DNA of 37,701 nt from NCBI GenBank assembly GCA_040182905.1, contig JARQWU010000074.1, forward strand, positions 1 through 37,701. Direction: 5' to 3'. Made by a program: the position numbers and the translations under genes. This stretch comes from Barthelona sp. PAP020 (Eukaryota). Positions 1,250-33,200 of the stretch are shown here, piece by piece. The notes below the pieces were generated by a model. That model searched no databases and had not been told where the DNA came from. It saw only the letters and a program-made list of their open reading frames with translations. Position 1 is the stretch's first letter. Every line of letters starts with the position of its first letter.

Positions 1250-1630
1250 GCCTCTTGTTTTTGCAATGTCTATCATCGTTTGGGCAAACACCAGTTTATT
1301 TGTTCCAACTCAACCTGTTTCCTATCAGGACCTTTTGGGCTTATCGCATCTTGTCAAACTGGTTCCAAAGAATTGATTCAAATGGGCATTAATCAATGGC
1401 ATGAAGTCTCTTAAAGTTTGGTGTTGTTGAAGAGCCTTTGATTAACAAAGGGTCAAAAACATATTATTTGGGACGGATTTAACTTATTTAAATTTCAGAG
1501 AAAAAGGAAAAGGAGAAAATCTCTTTGTTTATCTGCGGAAAGTTTGGACTTGAGAAGGAAATGAAACAGCAAGATTCAATTTTGACAGGCAAGGACAAAT
1601 CTGGGATAATATTTCCCTCTCATTTCTTTT
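1250..1630 (+). repeat. Diverged candidate copy (copy D) of the dispersed structured element
   Basis: Landmarks occur in the same order and similar spacing as in copies A and C: TCCTATCAGGA hairpin (1320-1330), long-range pair AACACCA (1287-1293)/TGGTGTT (1419-1425) directly before GAGCC...GGGTC (1432-1454), AAAGTTTGG (1539-1547), and CCCTCTC plus a T-rich end (about 1615-1630). Boundaries are approximate. Confidence 0.5.
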
Positions 1631-2524
1631 GTGTTTTTGAAGAAGAAAAATAATGTTGAAGTTGGTGCCTTTCATTTTAAAAAATAAAAAGTTCAAACAA
1701 ATCAATCAGGTCTCGAAAGCCCTTGCCAAATAAACACTATTTTTTCTTATTCACTCCTACGTACAGGACTTCTTGACGAGGAAATTAAAAATAACAGCTC
1801 TATTAAAAATTACAAATCCGCAAAAAGCTGCCTTTTTTTTCTAAGGGACTTCTCTTCTGTTCAATTTCTGTTGAAAAAAACTTTGCAGAAAAAAAATCCT
1901 TTTGTTCTTTAAAAAAGTATTTCATTCATTAAACTTGTTAATTCAAATAATTAAACTGTTAAATATCCTTTCAAAATAAAAAATTAGCAAAGCCTCCAAA
2001 ATTGTAGGATTGGGAAAGAAAATCTGGCAACTCAAAAGAAAACGTTTGGAAATATAATCTTTATGCTTTTGCAATACTTTGACCGGATTTGCCAAAAATT
2101 AGAGCTATCAAAAATTGGAAAATGATTTTCACTCAAATATGAGCAAAGTTCGCTTCTTTATGTTGCGTCCAACTGAAAATAAACAAAAATTTAAAGAATT
2201 TCTTTTACCATCTTTTATGTGTTTTAGGTTTAACTATGATTCATTTCTTTTAATCTTCAAAGAAAATTTTCCCTTTAGAATTAATTTTGAGTCACTCAAA
2301 ATTATTCACATTTGTAAAAAACATTGTGAAACTAACATATAAGCACAAAGTATACTGTTTTTGGAAATATGTAAATAATTTATGTTCATGGTGGAATTTT
2401 TTTGGTTTTTGTAACCTTTGGTTTCTAAATACAAACGTAAAAAAGAAAGACTTCCACACTGGGGCTTCTTTTGAAAAGAAAAAAGTAATGACAAAACCAT
2501 TTTTTTTTTTTTGGTCAATTATTG

Positions 2525-3583: not shown

Positions 3584-3619
3584 AAATTATATAAAGAGTT
3601 TTTCTTTTTTATTTTACTG

Positions 3620-4120: not shown

Positions 4121-4123
4121 GCC

Positions 4124-9766: not shown

Positions 9767-9883
9767 TTTAATTTGATAAATGTTTTGTCATTCTTTTTCT
9801 TTTTAAAAAGTTGAATGGAGGCACAAAAAAATATGAAGGACAAATTTATAAAGGCAAAAAAAAAAAAAATATGTTCTTGGCGC

Positions 9884-10543
9884 TTATTGGGATAAAATAT
9901 CAAAGAAAAGGGCTTCCTTATTATCAGTGTCATCCATTAGCTTCAGAATTTCTCCAACCCGATCTGTAAATCCATAAATGCAAGATTCAGAACCTTCATG
10001 GATTTTCACAAATTCTTTCAATAAGGGATGATCAATCATGAATCCACCAGCACAATACATTATGTCTGAATTAATTTGAATGACTTTTTCGATGATATCA
10101 TCAGGTATGTAATCAAAAGACACACTTGCAAAGTCAGTAAATTGAACGCGTTTATGTGTATGAGTGTTATAAATTTCAATGGTACTGTAACATAAAGCTG
10201 GATTGTGAAAATATGACGTTAAAAAAGTATAACATTGTTCCAAAGAATTAGGTTTATTTCGCACTTCAACGATACCATTTGAATCTTTGTATCCAATAAC
10301 CTGATCACCACAAATAATATAATGTGGTGTGTCATATTCTTTATCATTTAACATCTTTATTAAAGCATCCATTTTCGCAGAAGTTACTATTTTAGACAAT
10401 TCCAAAGGATTATCAGAAATATATTGTCTCTCATCAATATTTGGGTCCAAATAATCAACTATATGAAGATTTTGATCAACCATCGTTTGTATTTTCCATT
10501 TTGAAGTTGTACCACAAATTACAGGGTATTGTTTCAATGACAT
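9884..10543 (-). CDS. Maf-family nucleoside triphosphate pyrophosphatase
   Basis: Motifs ICGTTSKWK, NIDE, AKMDA, IICGDQVI, NKP and CAGGFMI match the Maf fold. Likely ATG at 10543. Confidence 0.8.
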   Translation of the reverse strand: MSLKQYPVICGTTSKWKIQTMVDQNLHIVDYLDPNIDERQYISDNPLELSKIVTSAKMDALIKMLNDKEYDTPHYIICGDQVIGYKDSNGIVEVRNKPNSLEQCYTFLTSYFHNPALCYSTIEIYNTHTHKRVQFTDFASVSFDYIPDDIIEKVIQINSDIMYCAGGFMIDHPLLKEFVKIHEGSESCIYGFTDRVGEILKLMDDTDNKEALFFDILSQ

Positions 10544-10740
10544 GAAAAAAATTAAGAAAGAGTTGGAAAAAAAAAAGCACAAAACTGAAATTCCAATATC
10601 AAACAGTTCTTTTGTAAAAATAGTATATATTATATTGAATTTAATACTCCATTTATGATTTTAAGGGAGGAGAAATTATTTGTTTTTTTTTTACCTTCTT
10701 GTGCTTTTATTGTTTTTACATATTCCACATATATGTTAAT

Positions 10741-12492: not shown

Positions 12493-12918
12493 TTGTAAAA
12501 TATTGTGTAAAAGATATTGATTTGGTTTTTTTTTTTGTTTTTCTTGTTTTTCTTGTTTTTTTTTCGTTCATTTTTCATTTTTTACTGATTTAAGTTTGAT
12601 AAATGTTGGAAGAATTGGGTTTTTCTCAAAAAATCTTCACAAAATTTTTTTATTTTGTTTATCCTCAAAATTGATTTCAACAACTATAATATTTTCTTTT
12701 ACAAATTCAAAAACTTGTTTTTTAATGTGCAAATGGGAAAACTCTAATTTGACAGTTCAATTGTATTTTCAATTTTTTCATAACAATCATTCTTTATTCA
12801 ATATTGCAAATAATATAATAAATATCATGTCAATACATTGATTGTCTCAAAAAATTTCCAGAAAAATCAAAGAAATTTGACTTTGTTTGAACTTCATTGG
12901 ATTACCAAATTTTCTTTT

Positions 12919-14565
12919 ATGCCTGAAGCCACAATTAATAGTCTTCTTATAGGAGAAACAGAGGAATATGGTGAAAAACCTTCATCATTGGATGTATGGA
13001 CTGTTATCTTCCAAGTTATTTGCTTGCTTGGTTTGGTTATGACATTCACTGTCATTATTTCAAGAACAAATCAAATTGTTGATTTTGAATCAGAAACCGT
13101 TATGGGTGAATTATCATTTCAATCTTTAGAAAGATATGTTATTCCTGACAAAGCTTTGCCTCCTCCTGGTGATCAAAGAAACAGAGGTACATGTTGGGCA
13201 TGGGCTTCTATGTATGTGTTGCAATCTGCTTATCGTAAACAAGGTATTGAAATGGGATATTTAGAAGCTGATGAATATGTTGATTTTTCAGTTCAAGCCC
13301 ATGGTATCAATATTATCAATTATTGTTCTGCCCATCCTGATGAGTGTCCTGATACACCTGAAAAAGATGGAAAGAGTTCAACTGATGGATATATTTCTTG
13401 GTTATATGTTTTCAATAATTATTTGAAAGATAAACTTGTTCCTGATATGAAGAGTTGTCCTTATACTCCTGATCCTGGTCAAGATACTGAATGTCCTGGT
13501 ATGAAGGAATATTTGGAAGTCAACCCTCTCAGATATGATTTCAAGATGTTTGATCCCATTTATACTGTTGAAGGTGTGAAACGCACATTATTAAAAAGAC
13601 AACATGCTTTGCCTCTTATCACTGAATTGATAATGAACCAACATTTCGTTCCTTGTTCTGAAGGTTATGAAAATACTGATCAATGTATTAACAAGCAATA
13701 CAAATGCCCCAAAGATCAAACCCAATATTGTGCTAGGTTGAGTATGATGCAAAATACAAATGGTCATTTCTATTACAAGAAAAACAATGGACTTAATTCT
13801 GGTGCCCATGCCATGTCTATTGTTGGTTTTGATGACAATATTTTAACTTTCAGTGGAGATGAAGTTATTCATAAAGGAGGTTTTATTGTAGCCAATTGGT
13901 GGTCTCCTGAACATTCTCATTCTGTTGAATTCCTCTCTCAAAAGATCAGTTATCGTAATGAACGTTATCAATGTCCTAACAGTCATAGTCCTTTTGAATG
14001 GATGCCTGTTGGAGGTAATGGTGATGATATTTACAAATTACGTGAACCAACAAAACTTTCATGTCATTTCCAAAAGAATGCACATTTCCATACTCTTGAT
14101 CAAGATGTTATTCGTCAAGCTATTCCTTGTGAAGAAGATAAGACTTATATCTTAGTTAATAAGACTGTTGTTCCTGATTCTGATGGTTTACATATTGCTT
14201 GTTTCCATGTTGTTGAAGATAACGTTGATATTTGTTATCCTCCAATGTTATTCGATCTTTTGAATTTTGTTTTCCAACCCAAACAAACCACTGATGTTGA
14301 AGGATTGGGAGATTCTTGTGGTTTCTATGTTTACCCCTATGATTATTTCAATGAAGTACATCAACGCTTCGGTATGGTATTTTCTGCTGATATTGAAGTT
14401 GAATTTGAGAAATCTTCTTATCTTTCTCAACAAAGTAAATATCCTGAATTTAAGAATGGATATGAAAAGGTCAAGGAGGCTCAACATGTTCAGAATAAAA
14501 TGAAATGGACTCAACCTACCCCTTGGCAACAAAATGTCAGTTATCATCCAAGATTCAACGCATGA
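12919..14565 (+). CDS. Papain-family (C1) cysteine peptidase with N-terminal transmembrane anchor
   Basis: Catalytic motifs DQRNRGTCWAW (Gln/Cys), GAHAMSIVGFDD (His) and IVANWW (Asn). Hydrophobic segment VWTVIFQVICLLGLVMTFTVIIS near the N-terminus. Confidence 0.85.
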   Translation: MPEATINSLLIGETEEYGEKPSSLDVWTVIFQVICLLGLVMTFTVIISRTNQIVDFESETVMGELSFQSLERYVIPDKALPPPGDQRNRGTCWAWASMYVLQSAYRKQGIEMGYLEADEYVDFSVQAHGINIINYCSAHPDECPDTPEKDGKSSTDGYISWLYVFNNYLKDKLVPDMKSCPYTPDPGQDTECPGMKEYLEVNPLRYDFKMFDPIYTVEGVKRTLLKRQHALPLITELIMNQHFVPCSEGYENTDQCINKQYKCPKDQTQYCARLSMMQNTNGHFYYKKNNGLNSGAHAMSIVGFDDNILTFSGDEVIHKGGFIVANWWSPEHSHSVEFLSQKISYRNERYQCPNSHSPFEWMPVGGNGDDIYKLREPTKLSCHFQKNAHFHTLDQDVIRQAIPCEEDKTYILVNKTVVPDSDGLHIACFHVVEDNVDICYPPMLFDLLNFVFQPKQTTDVEGLGDSCGFYVYPYDYFNEVHQRFGMVFSADIEVEFEKSSYLSQQSKYPEFKNGYEKVKEAQHVQNKMKWTQPTPWQQNVSYHPRFNA

Positions 14566-14677
14566 TTGTAATTGGGTCTAAATATTTTCAAATGTTTTCT
14601 TAAATATTTGATTCAAGACTTTCATCGACTTTTTACTTGTTTGTTTTGTAAAAATATTTGTTTTTTTTATTTTTCTT

Positions 14678-15072
14678 CTTGTACAAACCTTTTCCAGAAC
14701 TTACCTAAATCAGAGACTGACAATCTCCGTTGACCAATAAATAATAAACCTTCATCTTTATTCTTTTCGGGGAGTTTCAGTGTTCCTGAATGGAACCTCT
14801 CTTTTTTGAGATCTACTCTTTCATAGGCTTTCGTAGGAGAGCTATGCCCTATGCGGGATGTGAACCTGCATTACCAATTGCTCAAAAGAGCTTAAAGCTC
14901 CGATATTTTGAAAAATTTATCCTAATTGTGCAAGTTTTCATGCATTCACCATGGCAGGTCAAAACTTTGGGGATAGGTTAAGGAAAAGTTCCGTACCTCG
15001 AGGCAAAGAGGAAGTATCGGAAAATTTCGATTCGACACCAATAATGGGCTTGGGAACAACCCTCCTTTTTTT
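14678..15072 (+). repeat. Dispersed structured non-coding element, full-length copy A (candidate ncRNA or mobile element)
   Basis: Colinear homology with 20331-20583 (+) and 26161-26579 (-). Shared blocks include AACCTTCATCTT.ATTC, GGAACCTCTC, TTTCATA, CTATGCGG.ATGTG, AATTG.TCAAAAGAGC, ATCCTAA.TGT.CAAG, GAAAATTTCGAT and CTCC followed by a T-run. Confidence 0.85.
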
Positions 15073-15188
15073 CATTTTTTCATTTTTTCATTTTTTGAAA
15101 ACAATAAAAGGCTATTTTTATGGAAACTTCAAAAGGGTTTAGAGTAGTTCAACAATATATTTTTTTTGATATTGGATAATTCAGATAA

Positions 15189-16226
15189 TTAAATAATCTT
15201 CTTAAATATATTTCTGGAAGAAGGAGATTTTGTTTTGGAATCAGATTCGGCTGAAGTTGACTCAGATTTGGAATTTAAAGAAAATTTCCGTTGCGTGCTA
15301 CTACTTCCTGAAGTGGTTGATGTTGATCCACTACTGTTCAATGATGATGCTTCAGCATTCTTGTTACCATACAAAAATTTGCTGGCAAACAAATCTTCTT
15401 TAGTAATGAAATGTAAACTATCTGGATGCTCAGTATGTTTTGATTTGTGCTTTATGTACGCATCTTTAACTTTTTCAAATCTTTCTTGCTCTTTTGTCAT
15501 CATAGTGGCAATATTACTCAATATCTTATTTTGTGCACTCATAGAACCAACAAATAATTCAGTCAAATTTTCTTGAGCATTTTCATCCTTCATCTTATCC
15601 TCCAAAATCTTTAAATTAAGCTCAAATTCTTTCTTCTTTAAAATAAGATCATTTGACAATTCAAAAAAATATTTTGAAGGTTTGGGTGCTTTAGAACGCT
15701 CATTTTGTGTCTCTTTTAAAAATTTCTTTGAATTATTGGTTTCTTCTTTTACACAATGTATTTTATTTCCCAAATTAACGGCTATATGTTGATGTTGATC
15801 AATCAAACTATTTAATTGATTTAATGAATATTCAACTTCCTCAATTTTAGAAGGTAAAGCGTTCAAATTATCAAATTCAAATTTTTGTAAATTGACAATA
15901 TCAAATCGATTTTTATGGATAATTTTTTCCAAATTAATAACAATTTTTTGATGTTCTTCTTCTAAATCTTTAAAAGGAGTCTTGGGTGTATAATTAATAT
16001 TGGATTGAGTTTTACTTTCTTCTGTTTCTTTTTCTTTGTCATTTTTTGATAAAAGAGAAGTTTTTTTTAAACCTCCAATAGTGGTTTTCGTGGTTGAATC
16101 ACTTTTTTTTGCAAAAAGACCCGTTTTTTTAGGAGAGCTTTCGGAACTGGAAGAACTTGTATCTTTTTTGCTAAACATATTCTTTCCAGAGGAAGAACTA
16201 CTCGTTTTTTTGTCAAATAAACCCAT
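15189..16226 (-). CDS. Nucleoporin Nup58/Nup49-like
   Basis: Ser/Thr/Lys-rich termini flank a coiled coil. YTPKTPFKDLEEEHQKIVINLEKII and PSKYFFEL resemble conserved Nup58 segments (T.W.DL....QK....IE..I; PS.F). Confidence 0.6.
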   Translation of the reverse strand: MGLFDKKTSSSSSGKNMFSKKDTSSSSSESSPKKTGLFAKKSDSTTKTTIGGLKKTSLLSKNDKEKETEESKTQSNINYTPKTPFKDLEEEHQKIVINLEKIIHKNRFDIVNLQKFEFDNLNALPSKIEEVEYSLNQLNSLIDQHQHIAVNLGNKIHCVKEETNNSKKFLKETQNERSKAPKPSKYFFELSNDLILKKKEFELNLKILEDKMKDENAQENLTELFVGSMSAQNKILSNIATMMTKEQERFEKVKDAYIKHKSKHTEHPDSLHFITKEDLFASKFLYGNKNAEASSLNSSGSTSTTSGSSSTQRKFSLNSKSESTSAESDSKTKSPSSRNIFKKII

Positions 16227-16410
16227 AAAATTTGTAAAAAAAAAACTTTATTCCTTTTTCGTTTTTTGGTTGTTTATCAATTTTTAAATGCAAAAGAAGT
16301 TTATTTATGTTTTCAGCAATAAATAAGCCATGAAAGCAAAATTAAACAATGACACAAAAACAAAAAAAAAAAAACATGTACAAATTTACATTTCTTTGAC
16401 ACATACTTCA

Positions 16411-19400
16411 TCAAGACTCTTCCTCCATTTGATTGTTTAATTCATTTACATACTCACGAACTCCATTTAATTCTTCAGTAATATGGGTAATACGATTTTT
16501 GAAATGTTCCATATTTTTCAAATCATTAACTTGGATATAATATTTCAAGATGTCCTTATCTTGCTCTAAAATAGCTTCAATATTCTTTAAATAATCAACT
16601 GGACTTAAAGTGCCGTTTTCACCAGCACTATCAATAGCATTGGAAGCATCCAATAATTGATTGTAGGTGCTTTCCAATAAAGCTCTTTGTAAAACTGGAA
16701 GATCTGTTACTTTCATCTCTTCCATTAACCTATCCATCTCAATATCACAACTAGATGAACAAATAGATAAACGTGCCACATTATAAGCACTTTCAACAAT
16801 AAGTGGTTTAGGAACTTCGATTTGTTTCGCTTTCTCAACAGTAGTTTTTGATTCTGAAATTCCGGCAGCTTTTCTTTTTTGTTCCTCAATTCTTTGTAAT
16901 TGTCTTTCCTTAGCCCTTCTTTTCAACAAAACCAAAGGATCATTCTCTTCCCAAAACTTTCTAATGGATTGGGTTTGATCTTTCAGATATTTCATGGCCA
17001 AATCCTTGTTTCTTTTGATCACATCAAAATTATATTTGAAAGCTACCTTTGTGTTTTCATCATCACCACCAAAATATGCTTCTCCAACAACTTTCTCCAA
17101 AAGACTAATCTGGGCCTTGAGATTATAACTCTTTTTTTCCTTAATATAGTCATATCTCATGTTATTTAAACTAACAATGGTCTTAAAAATTTTCACATCT
17201 GCTTCATTTAAAATAGGAGGAGGATACATTCTCAAACTTGGAGAGCGAATCTCTAAAACTGGTAAAACAACAGTTTCATGATCAAATCTGCTGATAACAT
17301 CAAATTCCAACACGCCTACATGATTTGGGACTAATTGACCCAACTCGTTTTCAATATACAAATAGACTTTTTCTTTACAAGTCTTTTTGAGATTTAATAC
17401 AGTAGGTTGTGCTTTATTTCTACGGCTCAATTTTGTTTTTCGTTCTTGTGTCCATGTTTTTCCATAAAAATCATTGTAATCACTGAAAATAAATCGAGGA
17501 ATGATCATGTTCACACTCATATCCAAAGGTTGTTGAAAATTGGACATAGGAACATTAATTGGTGGACAATTGATTGAATCCCCTCTATCTCTGTTCAAAT
17601 AAATAACATCAGATTCAATTTCAGTACTTTCACCGGTTTCCACATCGACACATTTAAACCTCCATTTATATTTACTCGGTTCTTCAGTAACATGATCAAA
17701 TTTAATTGGGCGACTCTCGGTTAACCTCAATTGAACAGTTCCAAGTGGAATATCAGAATTAATAACTGGAAAAGAACGATCAACAAAAGTCAACGTTAAA
17801 TCATCAGGCAATTTCTTATTGGCTTTTGTGAATTGAACTAATTGAGTTAATGCTGCTTGTGTATATTCTTTATGTAAAGAAACATAGACTTTATCGGCAT
17901 TATCAGTATAAAGATTTAAAGCTTTTTTAATTCTGGCTTTAATCAATGGAATTGTCATTATTTCTGGGAATTCGGCGCAAAATTTTGTGAAATTAACAAC
18001 AGATGGAACAACTTCTGCAGTTAAGGGAAACATGTTATGAACTTCATTCTTAATTCTAGGTTCAAAAAAGTCCAAAAAATTATCATTCTCCATAAAAAAG
18101 GCATTCATAGAATCAACCAAAGAAAATTCATCCTCCACACCATCTCTTTCAAAATTTGGAAAATAAAACACTAAAACATCAGGATAATGGGTGTAGAAAT
18201 GGTTAATAATAGCCCTTTCTTCAATTGGAGATTGAGACTCGAAGAACGTTTTGAAAACATCTAAATTTTTCCTTAATTGCTTCATCTTCTTCTCAACAGC
18301 TTTTTTTACTTCAATAGAATTTGCTAAATTGATATCATCGAATGTGAATTGATAAAAAGTCTCAATATTCTTCATCACAATCCTATCTCGAATATATTCA
18401 ACCCAAATTTTGAAATAATCCATGTACGCCACAAAAAACTCAACGAATTCCATCTCATCTGTCATCTTAGAAAAGGTCCTATTGTATTTTTCATATGTAC
18501 GAAAGGGACTTGGTTGAACATTTCCTTCCGAATCTTTAAATCCTTTGTTTAGACATTGCAACTCACTTGTATATTGAGTAAAGAACTGTTCAAAATCTTT
18601 TGCTTGATCAAAAGTCACAAAATTCAAATCTTCTTCCATTTGTTCATCCTCTGGCAAATCAATTAATCCATCCATATCTTCATATTCCATACCTTTCTCT
18701 ATTTCAGCCAATAAAGCTTCCTCATCCAATTCTTCCTCTTGTAAAAACTCAATCTCATCCTCTTTATTGGCATCCGTTAACCTTTTATTGATTTCTTCAT
18801 ACTCTTGATTAAGCCCTTTAGAACACATCAACTCATACTTTTCTTTTAACACAACCGGATCTTCGGAAAAACTCAATAACTTTTCACAAATCTTCACCAG
18901 ACCTTCTTGTCCAATATTAGAACTCATTTCAGCGTTTTCCAGCAAAAAATTAATATTGTCTAAAATTTTTTGATGTTCAGCACGTTCAAGAGCTTCAATA
19001 GACATCCATTTAATTCCTTTTTGCTCTTCAATATCTCCAATAAATTGTAAAATTGCATTTTTACTCTTCTTATTATAACGATCAACCAAATCCATATCGC
19101 TTAACTCAGTTAAAGTATTTACAACAGGTATAATCTTCTCAGAAGGATTTCCACTGATGGTTGGTAATGTGTCGCACCCTTCAAGAATAAAAACCAACTG
19201 AGAACGAATATCTTTAGCTTGCACAGAAATTTCAGCCACAACTTCTTTTGGTAATTGCTCTTCTGGTTGACCTAAACTATTATGAGGATCCATAGCTGCA
19301 ACAGTACCAACATTGGGAAGACTTCTCATACTGCTCATTATTTTAGGTATGGCTGGACTTAATTTATTCACTAAAACCATCATATCATCCCTTTTCATCA

Positions 19401-19563
19401 AACTTTCAAATTTAACAATATTTTTTTGAATATCTGGATGAGGATTATGAGAATATAATGTTCTCAATTCATCTATCCAAGATTGTAAACTCCTTTGAGC
19501 TTCATTCAACTCATTATCGTTTTCTCTTGCTAACTGCTCGAGTTCAGAATCCAAATTATTCAT
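16411..19563 (-). CDS. Large protein (1050 aa), possibly CC2D1/Lgd-like (C2-like region plus C-terminal helical domain)
   Basis: A long uninterrupted ORF, so the coding call is secure; the family call is tentative. The beta-rich segment ending LEIRSP and the C-terminal G.LS..DYL..I....EQDK...R...I.EEL pattern recall CC2D1. Confidence 0.6.
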   Translation of the reverse strand: MNNLDSELEQLARENDNELNEAQRSLQSWIDELRTLYSHNPHPDIQKNIVKFESLMKRDDMMVLVNKLSPAIPKIMSSMRSLPNVGTVAAMDPHNSLGQPEEQLPKEVVAEISVQAKDIRSQLVFILEGCDTLPTISGNPSEKIIPVVNTLTELSDMDLVDRYNKKSKNAILQFIGDIEEQKGIKWMSIEALERAEHQKILDNINFLLENAEMSSNIGQEGLVKICEKLLSFSEDPVVLKEKYELMCSKGLNQEYEEINKRLTDANKEDEIEFLQEEELDEEALLAEIEKGMEYEDMDGLIDLPEDEQMEEDLNFVTFDQAKDFEQFFTQYTSELQCLNKGFKDSEGNVQPSPFRTYEKYNRTFSKMTDEMEFVEFFVAYMDYFKIWVEYIRDRIVMKNIETFYQFTFDDINLANSIEVKKAVEKKMKQLRKNLDVFKTFFESQSPIEERAIINHFYTHYPDVLVFYFPNFERDGVEDEFSLVDSMNAFFMENDNFLDFFEPRIKNEVHNMFPLTAEVVPSVVNFTKFCAEFPEIMTIPLIKARIKKALNLYTDNADKVYVSLHKEYTQAALTQLVQFTKANKKLPDDLTLTFVDRSFPVINSDIPLGTVQLRLTESRPIKFDHVTEEPSKYKWRFKCVDVETGESTEIESDVIYLNRDRGDSINCPPINVPMSNFQQPLDMSVNMIIPRFIFSDYNDFYGKTWTQERKTKLSRRNKAQPTVLNLKKTCKEKVYLYIENELGQLVPNHVGVLEFDVISRFDHETVVLPVLEIRSPSLRMYPPPILNEADVKIFKTIVSLNNMRYDYIKEKKSYNLKAQISLLEKVVGEAYFGGDDENTKVAFKYNFDVIKRNKDLAMKYLKDQTQSIRKFWEENDPLVLLKRRAKERQLQRIEEQKRKAAGISESKTTVEKAKQIEVPKPLIVESAYNVARLSICSSSCDIEMDRLMEEMKVTDLPVLQRALLESTYNQLLDASNAIDSAGENGTLSPVDYLKNIEAILEQDKDILKYYIQVNDLKNMEHFKNRITHITEELNGVREYVNELNNQMEEES

Positions 19564-19722
19564 TCAAGGAAATATTGATTTCTTTTTCAACGTTTTTTTT
19601 TAGTTCACAACTCCTTTTCCTTTCTTTATTCACAACAGATAAACACTGACTTGTTTTAAAATTAGTTGCAAAAAATCAATCCAACCAACAGAAAATTCTC
19701 ACACATTTTTTTTCTTTAGTTA

Positions 19723-20264
19723 ATGTCGCTTTCAAATAGACGCCTTCAACAAGAGGCCAAGCAATTTCATAGAAATGAAAATGATTTCATAACTGCAGGT
19801 ATTTAAAGCTTTATTCAATGTTTTTGATTTTCTAACGATTTTTAGGTCCTTCAGAAGATAATTTATATCTTTGGAGAGCAGTAATTTTTGCACCTCCTGA
19901 TTGTCCATGGACTGGTGGAGTTTTTAAAGCTGAATTAAGATTTCCTGAAAATTATCCCATGGTTCCTCCTGAAATGCGTTTTACCACTCCAGTCTATCAT
20001 CCAAATGTATATCAAGATGGAAAAGTTTGTATTTCTATTCTTCATCCTCCAGGAGATGATCCATATGGATATGAACATGCATCTGAACGTTGGTCTCCAG
20101 CTCAATCTGTTGAATCTATTTTAATTTCTGTTTTATCAATCTTTTCTGACCCTAATTTTGAATCTCCTGCCAATATTGATTGTGCCATTCAATTTAGAGA
20201 CGATAAAGAGGGTTGGAATGCACAAGTTCAACAATGTGTTCTTCATTCCCAAGAATCTCTTTAA
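19723..20264 (+). CDS. UBC7: Ubiquitin-conjugating enzyme E2, Ubc7/UBE2G type; exons 19723-19798 and 19846-20264
   Basis: The spliced frame reads MSLSNRRLQQEAK...FITAG/PSEDNLYLWRAVIF...HPNVYQDGKVCISILHPPGDDPYGYEHASERWSP, including the acidic insertion loop of Ubc7/UBE2G. Confidence 0.92.
19799..19845 (+). other. 47-nt spliceosomal intron
   Basis: Sequence GTATTT...TTCTAACGATTTTTAG. Its removal restores the conserved E2 N-terminus. Confidence 0.9.
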
Positions 20265-20330
20265 GATTGTATGATAGCATTTCTTTTCTAATAAATTTAT
20301 CAGCCATATATAATTTTTTATTTTTTTTTC

Positions 20331-20583
20331 CTTGTGCAAAACTTTTCCAAGGCTGAAGATCTCAGTTGATTAATAAATAGTAAACCATAATCTTTATTCT
20401 TTTGGGGGAAAGAGAGAATAACTTCTTGAAAGGAGCCTTTCAGTTTAAAGATCTAATCTTTCATATGTTGTCATTGGAAACCTACATCTATGTTAGATGT
20501 GAAATATTGTGTTATTAATTGATCAAAAGAGCCTTAGACTCCATTTTTAAGTTAAAATCTATCCTAACAGTGCAAATTTTCAT
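20331..20583 (+). repeat. Dispersed structured element, copy B (lacks the distal part of about 130 nt)
   Basis: CTTGTGCAAAACTTTTCCA...ATCTTTATTCTTTTGGGGGA...AATTGATCAAAAGAGC...ATCCTAACAGTGCAAATTTTCAT aligns with 14678-14941. Confidence 0.85.
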
Positions 20584-20629
20584 CAAATAAAGCGCAAAAG
20601 ACAGAATAAAATACAAAATATAAAATTAT

Positions 20630-21412
20630 TTACATTTGAGGATTGTAAGCATAAGGATCATACACATTTTGAGATTGTTGATAATATTGTTCTGGTTGTT
20701 GTTGTGGTTGACCCATTGGTGATTGATATTGTTGTCCCATATTAGGATCGTAGTATTGTTGTTGTGGTTGACCCATTGGTGATTGGTATTGTTGCCCTGC
20801 ATTTGGGTCATAATATTGTTGTTGTTGGGCATATTGTGGTTGCTGATATTGTGGCTGTTGTTGATATTGTGGTTGTGGTTGATATTGTGGTTGTGGTTGA
20901 TATTGTGGTTGTGGTTGATACTGTACCATATTTGGATCATAATATTGTTGTTGTGGTTGAGGAGCAATAACTTCCATTGGATTAGAAGTAGAATACGCAT
21001 TTTGGCTATATTGCATATTATTTCCTGCTGCAATCATACGAGAACGTTCATCAATAGGCATACCATTTACACCAATGGAAGGTAAATTGGCCATTTGTCT
21101 TCTGGCAGAACTGCATTGTTTTAAAAAGCTCGAAGCAAAATTACCAGCACCCGACGAACTGAAGCTAAGTTTAACATCAACGAGAGTTTCAGAAACAACC
21201 GCTCTGAAAGTAATATTATTAGCTCCAAAAAGTGGTTGATGAAATTCCTCATCTTCAATAGTAACTAATTGAATGGCGTATCTGGTACGACTCTGAAATT
21301 CAATAACTAAGTGAGTTTTGTACAATTCGACTCTACACTTTCCTTGTTCAAATCCACTAATTCTTGCTTCAACAGAACCTGAAGAAGCAATCTTTTGACC
21401 AAATTGACTCAT
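20630..21412 (-). CDS. WBP2-like protein (GRAM/PH-like domain plus Gln/Pro/Tyr-rich repeats)
   Basis: FHQPLFGANNI and KLSFSSSGAGNF match the WBP2 motifs QP.FGAN and KL.F..GGA..F. Likely ATG at 21412. Confidence 0.72.
   Translation of the reverse strand: MSQFGQKIASSGSVEARISGFEQGKCRVELYKTHLVIEFQSRTRYAIQLVTIEDEEFHQPLFGANNITFRAVVSETLVDVKLSFSSSGAGNFASSFLKQCSSARRQMANLPSIGVNGMPIDERSRMIAAGNNMQYSQNAYSTSNPMEVIAPQPQQQYYDPNMVQYQPQPQYQPQPQYQPQPQYQQQPQYQQPQYAQQQQYYDPNAGQQYQSPMGQPQQQYYDPNMGQQYQSPMGQPQQQPEQYYQQSQNVYDPYAYNPQM
20695..20960 (-). repeat. Coding tandem repeats (QPQPQY)n and a duplicated QQQYYDPN.GQQYQSPMGQP unit
   Basis: Repeated TTGATATTGTGGTTGTGG units and two copies of TGTTGTTGTGGTTGACCCATTGGTGATTG on the + strand. 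Confidence 0.85.
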
Positions 21413-21686
21413 TGTATTTAAAAAAAAATGTCTCGGAAAAATATTTTTAAACAAATGGAAATGGAACGATCCTTGGAATTATTTCATTTGAAACTAATAA
21501 AACCCCCATTCTTTGTCATAACAAAAGATTATTCATACCAAATCAATCTTCATATGTAAAGGTACAAAAATTTATATCTTAATGAACAAATATTTATTCT
21601 TATTGGAATAACAAAATATAATTGAAAAATTCTTGACAAAAGAAAAAGGATAAAAGGAAACACATCATATTTTGTTTCCTTTCATA

Positions 21687-22250
21687 ATGTCAATACCTCC
21701 ATTGCCAGAATTAAAGTTATCCAAAGCTGAGGAATTAACAAGATATGTTAATAATATAGTTTATGAAAATGAAAAGAATTTGTTTGTTCTTGACGATGAT
21801 GTTGATGATAAGACTTTTAGAAGTGTCGAAGCAGAAACATTGAATAATTTAACAACAATTGGGTCCATTATTGAAGAATTAACCAGATTTATTCTTTTAT
21901 TTGATTATTCACCCGATATCACTTATTTTGAAAAACAAAGAATAAAATTACAATTATTGGCACAAAAAATGCAAAATAAATTGACAAAATTACATTTAAA
22001 ACCGTCTCCTGTACGTTTAAAAAGTGTTGAGGAAGGACCAACAGATCCTTCCAAGTTAGATTCAGGATTGGCTTCTGTATTTTCTGAAACAGAAAGTGAT
22101 TTATCGCATGCAAGTTCTTTTGACCCAAATAGTGTATTGGAATTGCAAGTTAAATTGACTCCATCTGAATATGAGACACTATTATCAGCTCGAGGATCAA
22201 GAGGGTTACCAAGTTCAACAGTTGTAATTCAAAAGGATGATTTTTTGTAA
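21687..22250 (+). CDS. Hypothetical protein (187 aa)
   Basis: Open frame with coding-like composition between AT-rich spacers; no family recognised. Confidence 0.7.
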   Translation: MSIPPLPELKLSKAEELTRYVNNIVYENEKNLFVLDDDVDDKTFRSVEAETLNNLTTIGSIIEELTRFILLFDYSPDITYFEKQRIKLQLLAQKMQNKLTKLHLKPSPVRLKSVEEGPTDPSKLDSGLASVFSETESDLSHASSFDPNSVLELQVKLTPSEYETLLSARGSRGLPSSTVVIQKDDFL

Positions 22251-22426
22251 AATATGTAAGATTTTTTTATTTATTTCTATTTAATGTGATTTTCCAATTC
22301 CTTAACATTTATTCAAACATAAATATAATAATAAGATCTAAGATAAAAAAAAGAAGGATAAAAACACGCAAACAAGAAAATAAGTATTTACTTTTATTAA
22401 TGAAAAAGATATAGAGAATTGAAATA

Positions 22427-24355
22427 ATGTCATATTTAACCACGAAGTCACATAATATTAAAAATATAATCGACGAAGCAATTAATGAAGAAATATTATT
22501 TATCACTGAATTGATAAATGATCACATGGTTTTCTATACCAATATGAATCGATTAATAATTTTTAATAAATATTTTGACATTATAAATGTGATAAAATTA
22601 CCTTCTAGTCTTGATTCAAGAAATGTTTTAGAAATGTATTTATCTTCTGACAATTTAATTTTTGTTCAAAAAAATATTGTTTATTGTTACGATATTGTGA
22701 CTGAAGTATTTAAATGTTACAATCATTGCATGGAATTTGAAGAAATGAATGAAAGAAAAATATTTTTTTTTGACATGAACAGGAATTTGAATTTGATTGA
22801 TGATCACATGATATTTAGATATGAAAAAAGATTTTTGAGAAAGCCTTGTTTTTTTGAATTTCTTGAATTGACGAAGAAGGATGAAAGAATTCTGCAAATC
22901 AAATTTTATAGCGATTTTTTGGTATATCTTACTGAAAATAAATTAATAATGTTAGATTTGATGACATTTAGACCATTAAAATATTTGAGCATGTTGAATT
23001 CCAAAATTCCCAAAATTACTTCAGCAGCTAGGCTTTTTGTTAGTGCTTCTTTTATAATTATTTTACAAGATACAGAAATTTTTTTGATCGATATGATGAT
23101 GTTTGATGTTTCTAAGACAGTTTCATTTCCAAATTCAAATGTCGAAAATATTTGTGTTATCGAAGGGTTTTTGATTATTAGAGCAGATAATGTCATATAT
23201 TTATATGAAAATGAAACATTTAAACTTTTGAGAAAAATTGAAAGTGAACATCTGCATTTCTTCAAAAATGTTGCTCCCAACATCGTCATATATCAACAAA
23301 AAAAATCAGAATTTGTAACATTGAGTACGCCTACGCTACATCAAGTTTCTTTGTTGAGACAACTAGATGGTGATAATATTCACGCTATTGATAGTATTGA
23401 AAAGACCCCTGATAGTCATTATAAGGAACTTTTAACTTTAGAATTAAGGATTTTACAGGCTTCAAAACTCTGGGAAGATAAAGACTTTTCCAGTGCCTTA
23501 TTTATTATCGTTGAGTTTGTCTTTCCATTTTGTAATGAGAACGTTTGGAACATATTAATAGAAAAACTCATTGAACTGAATGAAATTGTTCTCCTTCAAC
23601 CCTATATTCACCACATTAGCAATCCACATCAATTGAAAAAGATTGTGTCTGAGATGGTTTTATCCTTTATTGAAGGAAATAACCTTCGTCAGTTGTTCAC
23701 TTTCACCCAATTCATTTGTACTTTGGGGGTAAACTTGATCGACATCGTTATTGACACCATTCACACTTGTCATTCTGTTATTGATGAAAAGATTGATGTT
23801 TTGATTTTAAAAAGTTTGTTACTATGCTACAACGCAAAGAATCTACCGGTAAGAAGTTTGAAAATTCTTCTCATCTTGGATGAGCCTTCAATTTTACAAC
23901 ATATCATTGAAAACAAATTATTTGATGTATTCAAGATTAATTCTCCAAATTTTTCCAAACATTTCACGTTACAACAAAGAAAAGATATCGTTGTTAAACT
24001 TTTTCTTCAATTTCCTCAAAATGTTTTCAATTTCGTCATCATTAACTTCGATCACATCTTGCTTGGTGATATTGACACATTCCTAAAATCATCCAAAAAC
24101 GAAAACGTGAAATTGATCAGGTTGAAATTTTTGGCAAAGGTTTCTGAGAATTTCATCATTGAAACAGGAATTTATCATAACGAAATATTCCAATATTATG
24201 CTTCTCAAGTGAAAAATAATGTTGATGTTGTAGATAACATTCGTAAATTCAAGAATTTATGTGAGCAATCTTTCTATTATGATTTAGAATTGGTTCAAAG
24301 TCTTGCAATTGATTTAAATTTGTTTGAGGCCATACAAATAATAAACGAAAGGTAA
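22427..24355 (+). CDS. VPS41: Vps41-like HOPS subunit, divergent and C-terminally short
   Basis: Beta-rich N-terminal half. KLWEDKDFSSA...VWNILIEKL...LQPYI, LKSLLLCY...LQHIIENKLFD and YHNEIFQYYA...SFYYDLE...INER parallel the Vps41 helical/clathrin-repeat region. Confidence 0.6.
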   Translation: MSYLTTKSHNIKNIIDEAINEEILFITELINDHMVFYTNMNRLIIFNKYFDIINVIKLPSSLDSRNVLEMYLSSDNLIFVQKNIVYCYDIVTEVFKCYNHCMEFEEMNERKIFFFDMNRNLNLIDDHMIFRYEKRFLRKPCFFEFLELTKKDERILQIKFYSDFLVYLTENKLIMLDLMTFRPLKYLSMLNSKIPKITSAARLFVSASFIIILQDTEIFLIDMMMFDVSKTVSFPNSNVENICVIEGFLIIRADNVIYLYENETFKLLRKIESEHLHFFKNVAPNIVIYQQKKSEFVTLSTPTLHQVSLLRQLDGDNIHAIDSIEKTPDSHYKELLTLELRILQASKLWEDKDFSSALFIIVEFVFPFCNENVWNILIEKLIELNEIVLLQPYIHHISNPHQLKKIVSEMVLSFIEGNNLRQLFTFTQFICTLGVNLIDIVIDTIHTCHSVIDEKIDVLILKSLLLCYNAKNLPVRSLKILLILDEPSILQHIIENKLFDVFKINSPNFSKHFTLQQRKDIVVKLFLQFPQNVFNFVIINFDHILLGDIDTFLKSSKNENVKLIRLKFLAKVSENFIIETGIYHNEIFQYYASQVKNNVDVVDNIRKFKNLCEQSFYYDLELVQSLAIDLNLFEAIQIINER

Positions 24356-24761
24356 CAATAGTTAAACATTCTTCTTCTTCTTTTTTTTCTTTATCATAAG
24401 TGTGAATTTTGAATTCATCTTGGGTTTTCTACAATATTTAATCGTCAATTAATTTTTTTTTAATTTTTTATTTTAATTTCAATGTCAATAGTAAAATTTC
24501 CTTTATTTATTCTATTTTTTTTTCCATTTGGGGTTTAAACTTTGTATTTTTATGTCTAAACCACAATTAATCATCAAATTAAGTATATGTATTAGTAACA
24601 TCAATAAAATGACTAATCTTCCATCTTTTTCACTTTACAATTTCTTTTTTGAACTTCTTTTTATTCTATTGGTTTATATGTTAATTAATACAACATTTTG
24701 ATAAATAAATCCACAAAGAGTCAAACAAATGATTTTTGATATTTTTTATTTTTTTCATCCT

Positions 24762-26079
24762 ATGGCAAATCCTGTATATAATGCACAAGTATCCCATTAA
24801 TTCTAACGTTTAGAAAAGAGTTGTTATCAAAAAACCTCAAAAAACCACAAAAAATAAAAATAGTGGTAATGAAATTCCTAAATCATTAAAACGCAAAATG
24901 ATTAAAGCTATGGAAGAACAAAGAATAGAACTTGAAAGGGAAGAAGCTGAAAAAATTGAAAATGAAAATAAATTGGCCAATCTCAATCAAAATGATCTGT
25001 TATTATCGGATGATGAAGATGAATTCGAAGACGAATTAGATGAAGACGAATTACCTGAAGAAGAATATCTCATTGCTGAAGAAATGACCAAGGAAGATTC
25101 TGCTGCTTTGGAAATGTTTTTTGGAAATGATGATGATTGGAATGATCCAATGTTTTTCATGCCTGAAAATGATTATGCAGCTGGAGTTACTGTTTCTGAT
25201 GTGATTAGAGAAAAATTATTAAAAGAAAAGCAAAATATGGAAGAACAGATCGCTGAGACTACTCTAAATCCGAAAATTATTGAAGCCTATACTACGGTAG
25301 GCACTATATTATCTAAATATAAATCTGGAAAGTTGCCTCAAGCTGTTCGTTTAATTTCCAAGGTAAAAAGATGGACTGACATTTTAGATTGCACTAAACC
25401 CTTTGAATGGTCACCAAATGCGACTTTTAAAATGACCAATATATTGGTTGCTGAATTAAACACCAAAAACTGTCAAACTTTTTTCTTTCGCTACTTGTTA
25501 CCAATAGTCAGACAAGATATTGAAGAACATAAGACTCTGAATTATCATCTTTATCGTTCTGTTAGAAGGGCTTTGTATAAGCCATCGGCTTTCTATTTGG
25601 GATTCTTCCTTCCTCTAATAATGCAAGATTGTTCATTACGTGAAGCTATTATCATTTCTAGAATATTGAGAACCACTTCAGTTCCTGTCAAGTATTCTGC
25701 TGCTGCGTTATCTAAATTGTTGGAAATTGAATGGAATCCAATCCAATCGTTTTTCATCAAGATGTTTTTAGATAAGAAATATAACCTTCCACATTCTTTG
25801 ATCGACAAGATAGTTGATCACATAGTCTCTTTTAGTAGTTGGTCTAGAACTGAGAAATTGCCAGTTATTTGGCATCAGATGATTCTCTCGTTGGCCGAAC
25901 ATTATCGAAATGAGTTGAGAGGTTCTCAAAAAGCTGCAATTCTAAGGATGTTAAAAAGACACAAGCATTTCACAATCACACCAATTATTGGACGTGAATT
26001 TCAATTAGGTGTTAATCGTGGGGAAGAAGTTGAGGAGAAAACATTCAGAACCATGATTCCTAAACCTTTGGAAACCTAG
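24762..26079 (+). CDS. BYSL: Bystin/Enp1 (40S ribosome biogenesis factor), with a short first exon and an intron ending at 24813
   Basis: Motifs LSKYKSGKLP, WSPNA, LNYHLYRSVRRALYKPSAF, LDKKYNLP and LPVIWHQ. The upstream ATG at 24762 splices in frame to 24814. Confidence 0.93.
24774..24813 (+). other. Spliceosomal intron (40 nt from GTATAT at 24774, or 25 nt from GTATCC at 24789)
   Basis: The 3' end is TTCTAACGTTTAG. Both donors are phase 0 and preserve the frame; the unspliced frame hits TAA. Confidence 0.75.
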
Positions 26080-26160
26080 GTTATTTATTCAAGCGGGGAA
26101 ATTATAAATATTGAAAAAATTTCTTTTTTCTTTTTCAATTCTTGAAACAAATGAACAAAT

Positions 26161-26579
26161 AAAAAAAAAAGGAGAGCTATTTGCAAGGCAATTTCTTTTA
26201 CCAGATCGAAATTTTCTGTTCTTCCTTTTTTCCTTGAATACCAAACTTTACAATCAACTTCTTCAAAAATTTTAACCTTTTACAAGTGAACTGCAAGAAA
26301 CCTTGTACATTTAGGATGAATTTCAAGAATATCAGAGCCTTTTGGCTCTTTTGAACAATTAGTACTGCAAAGAATTACACATACCGCATAGAAAATTCCT
26401 CTCAACTGGACAGCATATGAAATAAAAGAGTTAAGACTGAGAGGTTCCTGAAAGGAACCCCATTCCCGTCACCCACATCCAAATAAATATGAATGAAGAT
26501 GAAGGTTGATTATTCTATTTAAAAATCACCTTAGACACTAGTTCTCAAGTGAAAGTTTTGTAAAACGTTTCACACAAAG
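26161..26579 (-). repeat. Dispersed structured element, full-length copy C
   Basis: The reverse complement reads ...AACCTTCATCTTCATTC...GGGGTTCCTTTCAGGAACCTCTC...TTTCATATG...CTATGCGGTATGTG...AATTGTTCAAAAGAGCCAAAAGGCTCTGATATT...ATCCTAAATGTACAAG...GAAAATTTCGAT...CTCC(T)10, colinear with copy A. Confidence 0.85.
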
Positions 26580-26598
26580 AAAAAATAAATAAACAAAT

Positions 26599-29840: not shown

Positions 29841-30224
29841 ATGTCAAATTAAATAAGTGTTTATGGTTTCATTTGTTTTTATTGGTTTTGACTATTGTAA
29901 CTTAATAATATATTTTTGCATTCAATTGTATATTCAAAGAAATTGATTTTTTGCTCTGTAAATTTTCTTTTTGTTCTTCTTTATCGGATATCAGAATTGT
30001 ATTCCTTCAGTTGTGGTCCGTATCCTCCCCCTCCACACAGCATGCTGTTATCAACTTTTGGATTAATAACAACAAAAATAAAACGTCATCTCTTTATAAA
30101 ACCCAAGTAACGAGTTCAGAAACGAAAAACCCAACAAAAATCAGCTGTCAAATTTTTGGTGCTATAAAGCATACAAGCACACAAATCCAGAGATTATAAC
30201 AACAAAAATTGAAAAAACTAACAA

Positions 30225-33200
30225 TCAAGAGTTTCGCATTGAAAAAGTTATTTTTTCATCAAATTCCTCAACTGTTTTAATAGCTAGTGGAATTAATAAA
30301 GTTCTAGTACAAGTCATTGCAAAAGGATAAGCATGATTGGACAGTTGAATTTTAATTTTGAATGGAGAAATATTGAACACTGCACCACCAACAAATTTAC
30401 AAAATTGCAATAATTTTTCATCATTTTGTTCATCCAACCATTTTCTCAACAATCTATGTTCAGGAATTAATTCAAAATCGTAGGAAGAGATACTTTTCAA
30501 AGGAAAACACGAATCTAATGACAAAAAATATTTAGATATTCCTGCAATGACGTAATTGAACCCAGATTCGAAAGCTCTTAACTCTTTGATAAATTCATTT
30601 TCAATTGCTGAAGATACGATTGAAACTAAATTTTCCCGATCAATTTCACAACCTATAGAAACCTTTATCCCATTAAAAAAAACGATTTCATCAAGATACA
30701 CTTTAAATTCATCATTCTTCTTTATTTTATCAAATAATAATTCGTAATGTGGTAAGATTTCCAGAAGGATATCTATGTCATATTTAATATTCAGCAAATA
30801 ATGAAATATAAACTTGCTTAACCTTATTGAAGGCTTTCTATCATGAATAATTAAATGAGCTAATAACAATGCGTATATAAATACTTGATGTTGATCTTTT
30901 TGATGTGAAAAAAACCAAACAGTTGCATTTTGTGATACAGGTTCAAAACATGTTCTATCTTCAATCAATTCTTCTTCACATTTATTTATTATCGTACAAA
31001 TAGTTCCTCCTATATCATTATCATCCATTTGATGCAGGATTTGACCTGATAATAATTTTTGCCGATTAATAACAATAAGAAATTGTGATAAAATCTGCTC
31101 ACTTAATTGATCAAATATTTTAAAAGTTTTGAAATTGTTAGATGTCATATCAATAATAACTGAAGGAGGATACATTGAAGCTGAACCAAAAAATCGATAA
31201 AACTTTGAATGTTTCCATAACGTAGGTAATAAAGAGACAGATTCTTTCATTGCATTGATGATACCTTGAAAATATTCAAATTTGCTAATGAAAAGCAATT
31301 GATTTGCTATCGTTTCATAATGATGAGATAAAAAGAGGATTAAATCTCGGAATGTTAAGAATTCATCTCTCGAGAATTCATTCAAATTGCTATACTGTGG
31401 TAATTTCAAAGTGTTCCACAGAATTGTACCCATTTCTTCTGGAATATTATCATGAAAATATTTATTCAACACTTTTCGATGAAATCTAGTGAAAATAGGA
31501 ACAGGTGCTGGACCTAACACATTTGAATAAATAATTTTCTCATGTTCATTCATTAACAACTTAAATTCTTCCCGTAATTCATAATCATTCAATTTGTTAT
31601 AAACATTTCGTAACATTTTAAAAGTTTCTTCCCATCCTATCAATTTATTTGAAAAATTCCAATTCTTTTCAACTATTTCAACTATTTCTTCAATAGAAGG
31701 TAACCTTTCTGTTGTTAACAATAAACCAGCAAAACATTTAGCCCAAATTTTTGTTTTCAATACATATTTAAAAAAGTTAATCAAACCCCATGGTTTTATT
31801 ATATTCAACCCATATACAGTGAAAGAACCATAAGCTTCTTCTATATCCATTGTTGAATCAATTTCATATAAATTAACTCCGTTTTTAGACATACAATGAT
31901 AATTAAAACCCAATTTATCAATTTCCTCAACTTCAAAATCATTGAAATTGTTGGAAAACATACGAAAACGAAAACTTTTTTCGAAACTTTGATAAAAATA
32001 AAACTGTGAGTCTTTGCTTCTTATACAAGTCCTACCTGTATCAATAAAATTTAAATCGATATCTTCTTCTTCCAATATTTCTAATTCAAAGCCAGAATCT
32101 TCTTCTACTTCATAATTATTGCTATCTAATGCTGAAGAAAGTTGAAAATCTTCAATAATATGAAATAATTCAGGTTTTAAAGAATATTGACATAATAAGG
32201 GACCGAAACAATATATATAAGTTTCTGGAAATGTTATTTGAATAAATTTATGAGATAATTGTGCCAAAGTCATTTGTATTAAACCAATCATCATTGATTG
32301 CTTTGAAGGTATATTGTTGTTTAAAAATAAAGTCATGTTTGTGTGTATATTCATGAAAGAAAACCATTGAAAATCTTTGACATTATCTGAACAAACAACA
32401 GCAAAGAAAGAATTTTTTGAGTTTTGTGCTTGTTTGAAATTTATGAAGCAATTATCATTTATTTGCTGATTTCTATGAGAACCCAAATACATTGTTCCTA
32501 ATGCTGAAGTTGATGATGATTCATTATTAAAAGAATGATCATCTGTTTCTATCAATTGGTATGTAAAATCGAGTTGATTTGCGAGATTTTCTGCTACATC
32601 ATATAATGCATTAATAAATGAATTATTTATGGTATTAAAAGATGATTTGTTAATGATTTGACTGGATAAAAATGAAAAATAATTAGATTCAATAAATTCT
32701 GCTAGAAATAATGTTCCACAATCCAATCTCAACAAAATCTCATTGATTTGTTCAAAAATGGTTAAAGGTATGGTTGAAAAAATACAAAGATTTAAACAAT
32801 GAAAACTTTTGAATATTTCAAAAAAAACTTCTTCTAAACGGTCATTTTCAATAATAAATGAAGGTTCATTTATCAAATCAAACGTTGACTTGAATTTGAT
32901 ATGTTCAGCAATATCATTGAAATCCACTAACAATTTTTTATTATTACTAAAAATTTCTTTATTTTTTTCATTTTTTTTCAAGACTTTAACAATTTTTGTA
33001 TGTTTAGAAATTTCACATGCAGCAAATACATAAGTAATTTCATCAAATTCTTTTATACATACACTTCCAGGGATATAAAATAATATTCCATTTGAAATAG
33101 GATGACTACACATTATACCTTCAAATAATGTATCATTTTTTCCATAAAATTTGAAAATATCTCCTATAATTGGAGAAGTCATTTCCATTCCTAATATCAA

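Follow-up and report, generated by a model that had tools for sequence, protein, structure and literature searches.

The three copies of a short, dispersed element described here, all found within one window of the Barthelona sp. PAP020 genome, are tentatively best explained as decaying relics of a previously undescribed, non-autonomous retroposon family that resembles short interspersed nuclear elements (SINEs) or the short interspersed degenerate retroposons (SIDERs). Barthelona sp. PAP020 is a free-living metamonad, an anaerobic flagellate with a compact genome. The window, which is the whole stretch of DNA analyzed (37,701 nucleotides [nt] of contig JARQWU010000074.1), is gene-dense and intron-poor, with a G+C (GC) content of 30.4%. 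The bystin that it encodes matches one EukProt protein, labelled Barthelona sp. PAP020, at 100% identity, while among the matches listed the other 119 do not exceed 46%. The genome itself comprises 13.2 Mb with 30.5% GC and 6,305 proteins, and the portions of its description available to us state no repeat fraction (PMC11316075).

Copies, boundaries and coding potential

The three copies are as follows.

14678..15072, + strand: copy A, full length, 388 nt plus a run of seven T; in the convergent spacer 14566-15188, 112 nt 3' of the stop codon of a + strand gene
20331..20583, + strand: copy B, limited to the 5' domain (253 nt); lies within convergent spacer 20265-20629, 66 nt 3' of the stop codon of a ubiquitin-conjugating enzyme gene
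26161..26579, - strand: copy C, full length, 409 nt plus a run of ten T; in the convergent spacer 26080-26598, 19 nt 3' of the stop codon of an MBOAT gene

When each copy was used singly as an nhmmer query against the window, the other two were recovered with E values from 8.4e-08 to 3.7e-32, and the next best match had an E value of at least 1.8. Over the 245 three-way columns without gaps, the identity is 75% between A and B (62 differences), 67% between A and C (81) and 65% between B and C (85). These searches confirm the initial annotation of the window, in which three colinear homologs of roughly two-thirds identity had been proposed at these positions and on these strands. The ends that it proposed were also recovered: all three copies start with YTTGTR, which gives them a sharp left end in common, while A and C share a right end followed by a homopolymer. 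In the whole window there are just two places where CTCC is followed by six or more T, namely the end of A, with 7 T, and that of C, with 10 T. The proposed length of about 390 nt holds for A and C, but not for the truncated copy B, which is without the 3' 140 nt; an extension of B into the 3' part was unsupported, as 316 of 500 and 214 of 500 shuffles scored as high. The claimed GC enrichment needs a similar qualification. All copies (A, 40.5%; B, 30.4%; C, 34.0%) exceed the spacer DNA outside the elements (24.5%), but B merely equals the window average.

The copies had also been proposed to be non-coding because their alignment requires indels that are not multiples of three and they have no open reading frame (ORF) in common, which our analyses bear out. 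Stop codons occur in all six frames of every copy, gaps of 1, 2, 4, and 5 nt are frequent in the A/B/C alignment, and the mismatches follow no codon phase (14/19/21, 28/31/32, and 22/23/17). It is hardly credible that the copies are decayed pseudogene fragments of a multi-copy protein-coding gene. Their GC content is near that of coding DNA, and A and C each contain one open stretch of 53-58 codons. These open stretches lie, however, in different frames, the mismatches lack the phase that coding ancestry would leave, and the two longest open stretches tested had no Pfam match at an E value of 1.

Comparison with known RNA families and other collections

None of the 4227 Rfam families matched any copy at its gathering score; only chance-level matches were found at E values up to 10, including when the 141-nt 3' part was isolated. 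This agrees with the initial failure to match the copies to known RNA classes. ARAGORN identified no tRNA gene in the copies, and a single Rfam tRNA match (E 5.5) was found in A. Patterns of the A and B boxes of RNA polymerase III (Pol III) were absent from both strands of all copies, and every copy contains internal runs of at least four T on its T-rich strand. A descriptor of ribozymes like that of hepatitis delta virus (HDV) found nothing in the six strand-copies. R/S core patterns of group I introns were likewise absent, with Rfam silent. For group II introns, the GUGYG motif was present in C only, the domain V pattern was absent, and one Rfam D1-D4 match of 24 nt (E 9.2) was found in B. 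A hammerhead core, also searched for by pattern, is not common to the copies: one of the three, B, has a core-like motif with a short stem before GAAA at 20353-20412 (+), which is without counterpart in A or C and is probably due to chance. Likenesses to solo long terminal repeats (LTRs), Helitrons, U1, U6, signal recognition particle RNA, and tRNA, again judged by motifs, were rejected, being limited to one copy or without Rfam support. Also rejected was the possibility that A and B are the LTRs of one element; the DNA that they enclose consists of host genes, including that for the ubiquitin-conjugating enzyme.

Searches of metagenome, viral, prokaryote, plasmid and phage collections turned up no relative. 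For 13500-21500, no sequencing run was listed, which carries no information on expression. A blastn search with A gave no match at an E value of 1 among plasmids and phages, and three sequence patterns gave no match in viral contigs. Pattern scans yielded two loci on metagenome contigs and two in prokaryote genomes, which we attribute to chance; in L001 and L002 the similarity is confined to the pattern (about 6 bits), and L003 is on the same contig as L002. The family is apparently undescribed, as no description was found in the literature or in the available portions of PMC11316075 and its supplements, a scope that leaves aside subscription journals, Dfam and Repbase.

Genomic context

Copies occupy three of the six convergent spacers and none of the 14 other spacers (Fisher p 0.018, with the spacers classified by our own reading of the 21 window genes). 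Each begins 19-112 nt 3' of the stop codon of the co-oriented gene, immediately behind a T-rich tract, and the orientation relative to this tract is identical in all three. The 30-nt left flanks of A, B and C contain 60-67% T, and the right flanks of A and C contain 70-80% T. Without the element, the three spacers would measure 228, 112, and 100 nt, compared to 117 nt for an element-free convergent spacer. Because ordinary residual spacers of 100-228 nt are left once the elements are removed, the elements look inserted. This context suggests insertion into 3' tracts, or survival there alone. The Pfam scan of the window ORFs revealed no evident common function among the genes next to the copies.

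The initial annotation had envisaged a very large family. The element is probably numerous, although its copy number is an extrapolation: scaling gives about 1,050 copies (217-3,070) per 13.2-Mb genome, a figure inflated by the selection of the window for its cluster of copies.

Structure and divergence of the copies

The element consists of two parts, a 5' domain of 247-278 nt that is closed by a predicted basal stem, and a 3' part. Copy B ends just after the first of these, 7 nt beyond the stem.

14678..14934, + strand: 5' domain of A, with a predicted 9-bp basal stem (14678-14686 with 14926-14934); z -3.0 and -3.8
20331-20337 with 20570-20576, + strand: predicted basal stem in B
26578-26572 with 26308-26302, - strand: predicted basal stem in C
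14935..15065, + strand: 3' part of A, homologous to 26301-26171 of C and absent from B; fold no better than shuffles

Across the copies, 20 of the 21 cells of the basal stem (helix 1) are paired, six of them by G-U. Compared to dinucleotide shuffles, the T-rich strand of the 5' domain is predicted to fold well in A (z as listed) and in C (z -3.6 and -2.8), while the opposite strand reaches only -0.7 to -1.2. Background folding at 32 positions scanned reached z -3 in 1 of 64 samples. Over whole copies, z is -1.5 for A and -2.5 for C. The fold of B is no better than that of its shuffles (z +0.2 and +0.3), and neither are those of the 3' parts of A and C (z +0.75 and +1.04). The 5' domain of the majority sequence folds at z -3.1, -1.9, and -1.9, varying with how ties are broken.

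The initial annotation had further considered a new structured RNA; that the element is a conserved RNA of this kind is not supported by our results. Not only does B fold no better than its shuffles, but the structure conservation index is 0.30 and the consensus energy has z of -1.7 and -1.8. On the T-rich strand, two helices of at least 5 bp are common to the three copies, compared to a shuffle mean of 4.9, and 91 of 100 shuffles reach as many. The A-rich strand has 11 such helices vs. a mean of 4.2 (1 of 100 shuffles), most of which are alternative pairings of U runs. Covariation is not significant: in a 44-pair structure, four pairs changed on both sides (helix 3 has three double-sided changes), and the five measures used were reached by 29-57 of 500 shuffles. 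It should be noted that this structure was built by hand from the same three sequences and that two of its seven helices are poorly registered. The substitutions fit a star of equal rates (12 three-state columns vs. 11.3 expected, in a test with one degree of freedom), the copies are about 12, 13, and 21% distant from the star center, and the clustering of conserved columns is not significant (p 0.10-0.25). Three sequences give the fold and rate tests little power. A founder RNA with a fold is plausible from these predictions, whereas present-day selection on the fold is not supported by the three copies, within that power. According to the initial annotation, a lack of transcription combined with neutral decay and no structural conservation would make the element an ordinary fossil repeat; the three copies come close to this in their sequences, in that their substitutions fit equal-rate decay and no structural conservation is shown, again with the little power that three copies afford.

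Origin of the element

The suggestion that the copies derive from an RNA-mediated mobile element fared better: they are probably mobile in origin, and a SINE- or SIDER-like retroposon is the reading that we prefer, if tentatively. Like SINEs, they are short, dispersed and non-coding, and the two full copies carry a T7 or T10 tail after CTCC, to which T-rich tracts of the host could contribute.

15066..15096, + strand: T-rich tail and right flank of A; T7 followed by 3.8 units of an 8-nt repeat, possibly a tail, a target duplication or a 3' tract of the host
26141..26170, - strand: T10 tail and T-rich right flank of C; resembles the left flank, a possible decayed duplication of 17-20 nt that is not significant vs. 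controls

The element would probably have been copied through an RNA intermediate and, with reverse transcriptase and endonuclease supplied by an unseen partner, a long interspersed nuclear element (LINE), inserted into pre-existing spacers by target-primed reverse transcription. Its position behind genes may reflect a preference for T-rich targets, or survival only at places where insertions are tolerated in a compact genome. What folding the 5' domain shows on the T-rich strand would then be a remnant of the founder RNA. The evidence as to the RNA strand points both ways: folding favors the T-rich strand and hence a U-tailed RNA, while the shortness of B would amount to ordinary 5' truncation had the A-rich strand been the RNA.

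Several observations weigh against a retroposon origin. Target-site duplications are not evident. The flanks of C align over 17-20 nt, with 7 of 150 shuffles scoring as high, but those of A do no better than shuffles (97 of 150); the flank score is 10 within A and likewise within C, cross pairs attain as much as 11.5, and 6 of 23 element-free cut points reach at least 10. The copies share no tRNA or Pol III box, and all have the internal runs of four or more T. As the test for a Pol III head failed, the element is not classed as a canonical SINE, only as one that works like a SINE. The Pfam scan of 20 window ORFs detected no reverse transcriptase or transposase family. The evidence on the strand is mixed, with the fold z favoring the T-rich strand and an excess of common helices found only on the A-rich one, and the equal-rate decay comes from a test with a single degree of freedom on three sequences.

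Some of these features have parallels in other protists. In the portions of PMC2996970 available, the flanks of Entamoeba SINE1 are described as T-rich on both sides (55 and 52% T), which obscures its short duplications. Like this EhSINE1, the Barthelona element is short, non-coding, and dispersed in an AT-rich protist genome, with T-rich flanks, truncated copies, and duplications that are hard to see; the length of 451-684 bp, internal repeats of 26-27 nt, duplications around young copies, complementary DNAs, and partner LINE reported for EhSINE1 (PMC2996970, same portions) are not shown here. The SIDERs of Leishmania, as far as the consulted parts of the sources go, are degenerate, intergenic and mostly sense-oriented in 3' untranslated regions (UTRs) (PMC2689281; background in PMC2875222). 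The element resembles SIDER1 and SIDER2 (PMC2689281) in being degenerate, heterogeneous, intergenic, and oriented with the upstream gene, and a comparable density would give more than 1,000 copies. SIDERs also carry a 79-nt hallmark shared with ingi/L1Tc (PMC2689281), for which the element was compared by the HDV-like descriptor and Rfam only, both silent. A role in mRNA decay has been shown for SIDER2 (PMC5509151, in part).

A non-autonomous DNA element is unlikely, although it deserves consideration. [quoted passage not shown] In all three copies an inverted repeat does bound the first 257 nt, and B ends 7 nt beyond it. Fanzor ghost loci offer a precedent: as described in the accessible parts of PMC10432273, they are non-coding units of about 550 nt, 134 of which occur in one fungal genome. 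These ghosts (Spu-1; PMC10432273) and MITEs are, like the element, protein-less, a few hundred bases long and present in many copies. The ghosts have, however, inverted repeats of 30 nt at both ends and a conserved guide scaffold (PMC10432273), which differ from a 7-9 bp repeat around the first two thirds of the element, and the 30-nt terminal repeats were not seen in the copies. The inverted repeat closes positions 1-257 of about 390 and not the full element, and six of its 21 cells pair by G-U only, which in DNA are mismatches. The 3' part, where a guide scaffold would be expected, folds no better than shuffles (z given above), no duplication of fixed length was found, and no transposase or Fanzor family of Pfam was detected among the 20 window ORFs scanned.

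It is more doubtful still that the copies are a structured RNA module under selection, either as a family of RNAs in many copies or as a 3' UTR or terminator element that has been domesticated and controls the mRNA upstream of it. The folding of A (z -3.8) and C (z -2.8) in their 5' domains, on the strand transcribed by the upstream gene, the nearly complete pairing of the basal stem, the double-sided changes in helix 3, the uniform orientation to the T-rich tract, and the precedent of SIDER2 in Leishmania (PMC5509151, in part) all argue for it. Opposed to these are the loss of the signal in B, the low conservation index, common helices of the T-rich strand that do not exceed shuffles, covariation within the range of shuffles, the lack of rate heterogeneity, and neighboring genes without an evident common function. 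An Introner-like spliceosomal intron, spliced from 3' UTRs and formed by the 5' domain with GT near its left end, a branch-like CCTAA and AG at its right end, is extremely improbable. All three copies have CCTAA unchanged, 8-9 nt from the end of the domain, and the host introns observed start with GTAT and have TTCTAAC a short distance ahead of the final AG. No copy, however, has the GTAT start or the full host branch motif, B has no terminal AG, none is found in coding sequence, and the 140-nt extension would be left unexplained. Two short spliceosomal introns of the window, at 24763-24830 and 19790-19850, have the GTAT start and TTCTAAC near AG; a 40-nt bystin intron is confirmed by protein P0001, and the second host intron is read from the sequence.

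An RNase P/MRP-like helix in the 3' part

The 3' part of A contains a helix that resembles P4 of the RNAs of the ribonucleases (RNases) P and MRP (mitochondrial RNA processing).

14986..15051, + strand: P4-like helix in A, with three pairs, a bulged U and five pairs (14986-14994 with 15044-15051); all pairs form

At the corresponding site in C (26248-26240 with 26192-26185), four of the five outer pairs form, one with a double-sided change. The motif was chosen post hoc, and a P4-like helix arose in 184 of 2000 shuffles, or in 12 of 2000 when preceded by GGA(A). For comparison, we gathered 26 bacterial RNase P loci (L005-L030), in 25 of which the motif pair was found, giving 22 distinct pairs. 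On the resulting two-motif CR-I/CR-V profile, real pairs reach 50-56 bits and background no more than 16-20, and on neither strand do the sites in A and C rank within the top 12. The two strands of the helix are 56-58 nt apart in the element vs. 313-409 nt in 24 of the 25 real RNAs, a spacing that leaves the element without a specificity domain. Profiles built from RNase P RNAs, 16 of type B and 8 type A-like, gave no nhmmer match on the copies at E values up to 1000, although each profile detects the other RNase P type as a positive control; eukaryotic P and MRP models were covered through Rfam only. A GARAR pentaloop, which lies in P8 beside a 3-bp P5 and is MRP-defining according to the parts of PMC13184271 consulted, was not seen by inspection, the loops being at least 8 nt and not conserved between A and C.

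Membership in RNase P/MRP was rejected on these grounds: the motif score is at background, full-length profiles are silent, and there is no GARAR pentaloop. Within the available portions of PMC2996960 and PMC13184271, the likeness to these RNAs consists of the P4-like helix with its bulged U, complete in A and partial in C, while the element differs in lacking a specificity domain, a GARAR pentaloop, and a conserved P1, and in having many dispersed copies. It is very improbable that the element is a ribozyme-derived RNA, whose 3' third would be a shrunken catalytic core of the RNase P/MRP type joined to a separately folded 5' domain. Its complete 8-pair helix in A, the four of five outer pairs in C, and five at a relic candidate described below (1534-1610) speak for this; the background-level scores, the short spacing, the silence of Rfam, and the missing pentaloop speak against it. 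We give equally little credence to a new type of mobile RNA of two domains in about 1000 copies, with a folded 257-nt domain and a minimal RNase P/MRP-like catalytic core behind stop codons. If real, such an RNA could act on host transcripts by cutting or processing their 3' ends.

Further copies and other features of the window

No further copy was established within the window. One candidate, unproven, may be an older relic.

about 1484..1638, + strand: candidate older relic of the 3' part only; 6.4 bits, E 0.5, with 1 of 200 shuffles as high and the region picked post hoc

Within this candidate, at 1534-1610, the five outer pairs are complementary and the two strands stand 58 nt apart, as in the P4-like helix; the candidate scores 13.9 on the two-motif RNase P profile. 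It lies in an unusually long spacer (1033-2521; 1,489 nt, 30% GC) with no convincing ORF, which may contain further old insertions, or else a short gene split by an intron, and in which Rfam found weak matches only (E 0.056 and 0.39). A match at 2388-2512 (E 0.003) was rejected as a copy, since the model already contained the unproven relic. Two other oversized convergent spacers, 3584-4123 (540 nt) and 29841-30224 (384 nt), may hold another or an older family. The segment 3620-3900 starts after a T-rich tract and by eye faintly resembles the 5' domain, with a score equal to background. As extra copies, the spacers 3600-3920, 2350-2520, and 29845-30220 were unsupported by the three-copy profiles. 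Fourteen other spacer segments had no match elsewhere in the window below E 0.18, and a weak blastn pairing of 6738-6806 with 37452-37522 looks compositional.

Several other features were observed. At 8561-10582, genes for a class IV aminotransferase and a Maf-like protein lie tail to tail, and the 117-nt spacer between them is the sole short, element-free convergent one. The gene upstream of copy A (12838-14565, +) has no Pfam match even at an E value of 1; judged by its motifs, it looks like a papain-type cysteine protease. Between A and B is an ORF of 1050 amino acids (16411-19563, -) without a Pfam family, for which Atlas leads are sub-threshold (best 0.80; C2/DM14 cluster 0.78). Another ORF, of 1802 amino acids (30225-35633, -), has no Pfam match at an E value of 0.001, and its C-terminus presumably resembles a HECT ubiquitin ligase, judged by a motif. 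A short ORF at 7938-8357 (+) has a hydrophobic start and a run of about 70 serine residues from tandem repeats, and gives the strongest background fold signal (z -4.2).

Significance

On present evidence, the element represents a repeat family that is new but of an ordinary kind, with a residual fold. The repeats of barthelonid genomes have hardly been described; in the portions of PMC11316075 available, we found no repeat figure for PAP020 and no intergenic or non-coding analysis. If the density observed in the window holds, some 2-3% of a very compact genome of a free-living organism would consist of one undescribed family confined to 3' spacers. If so, it would be a second protist case, outside the trypanosomatids, of degenerate elements that lie behind genes and could be recruited for the control of mRNA.

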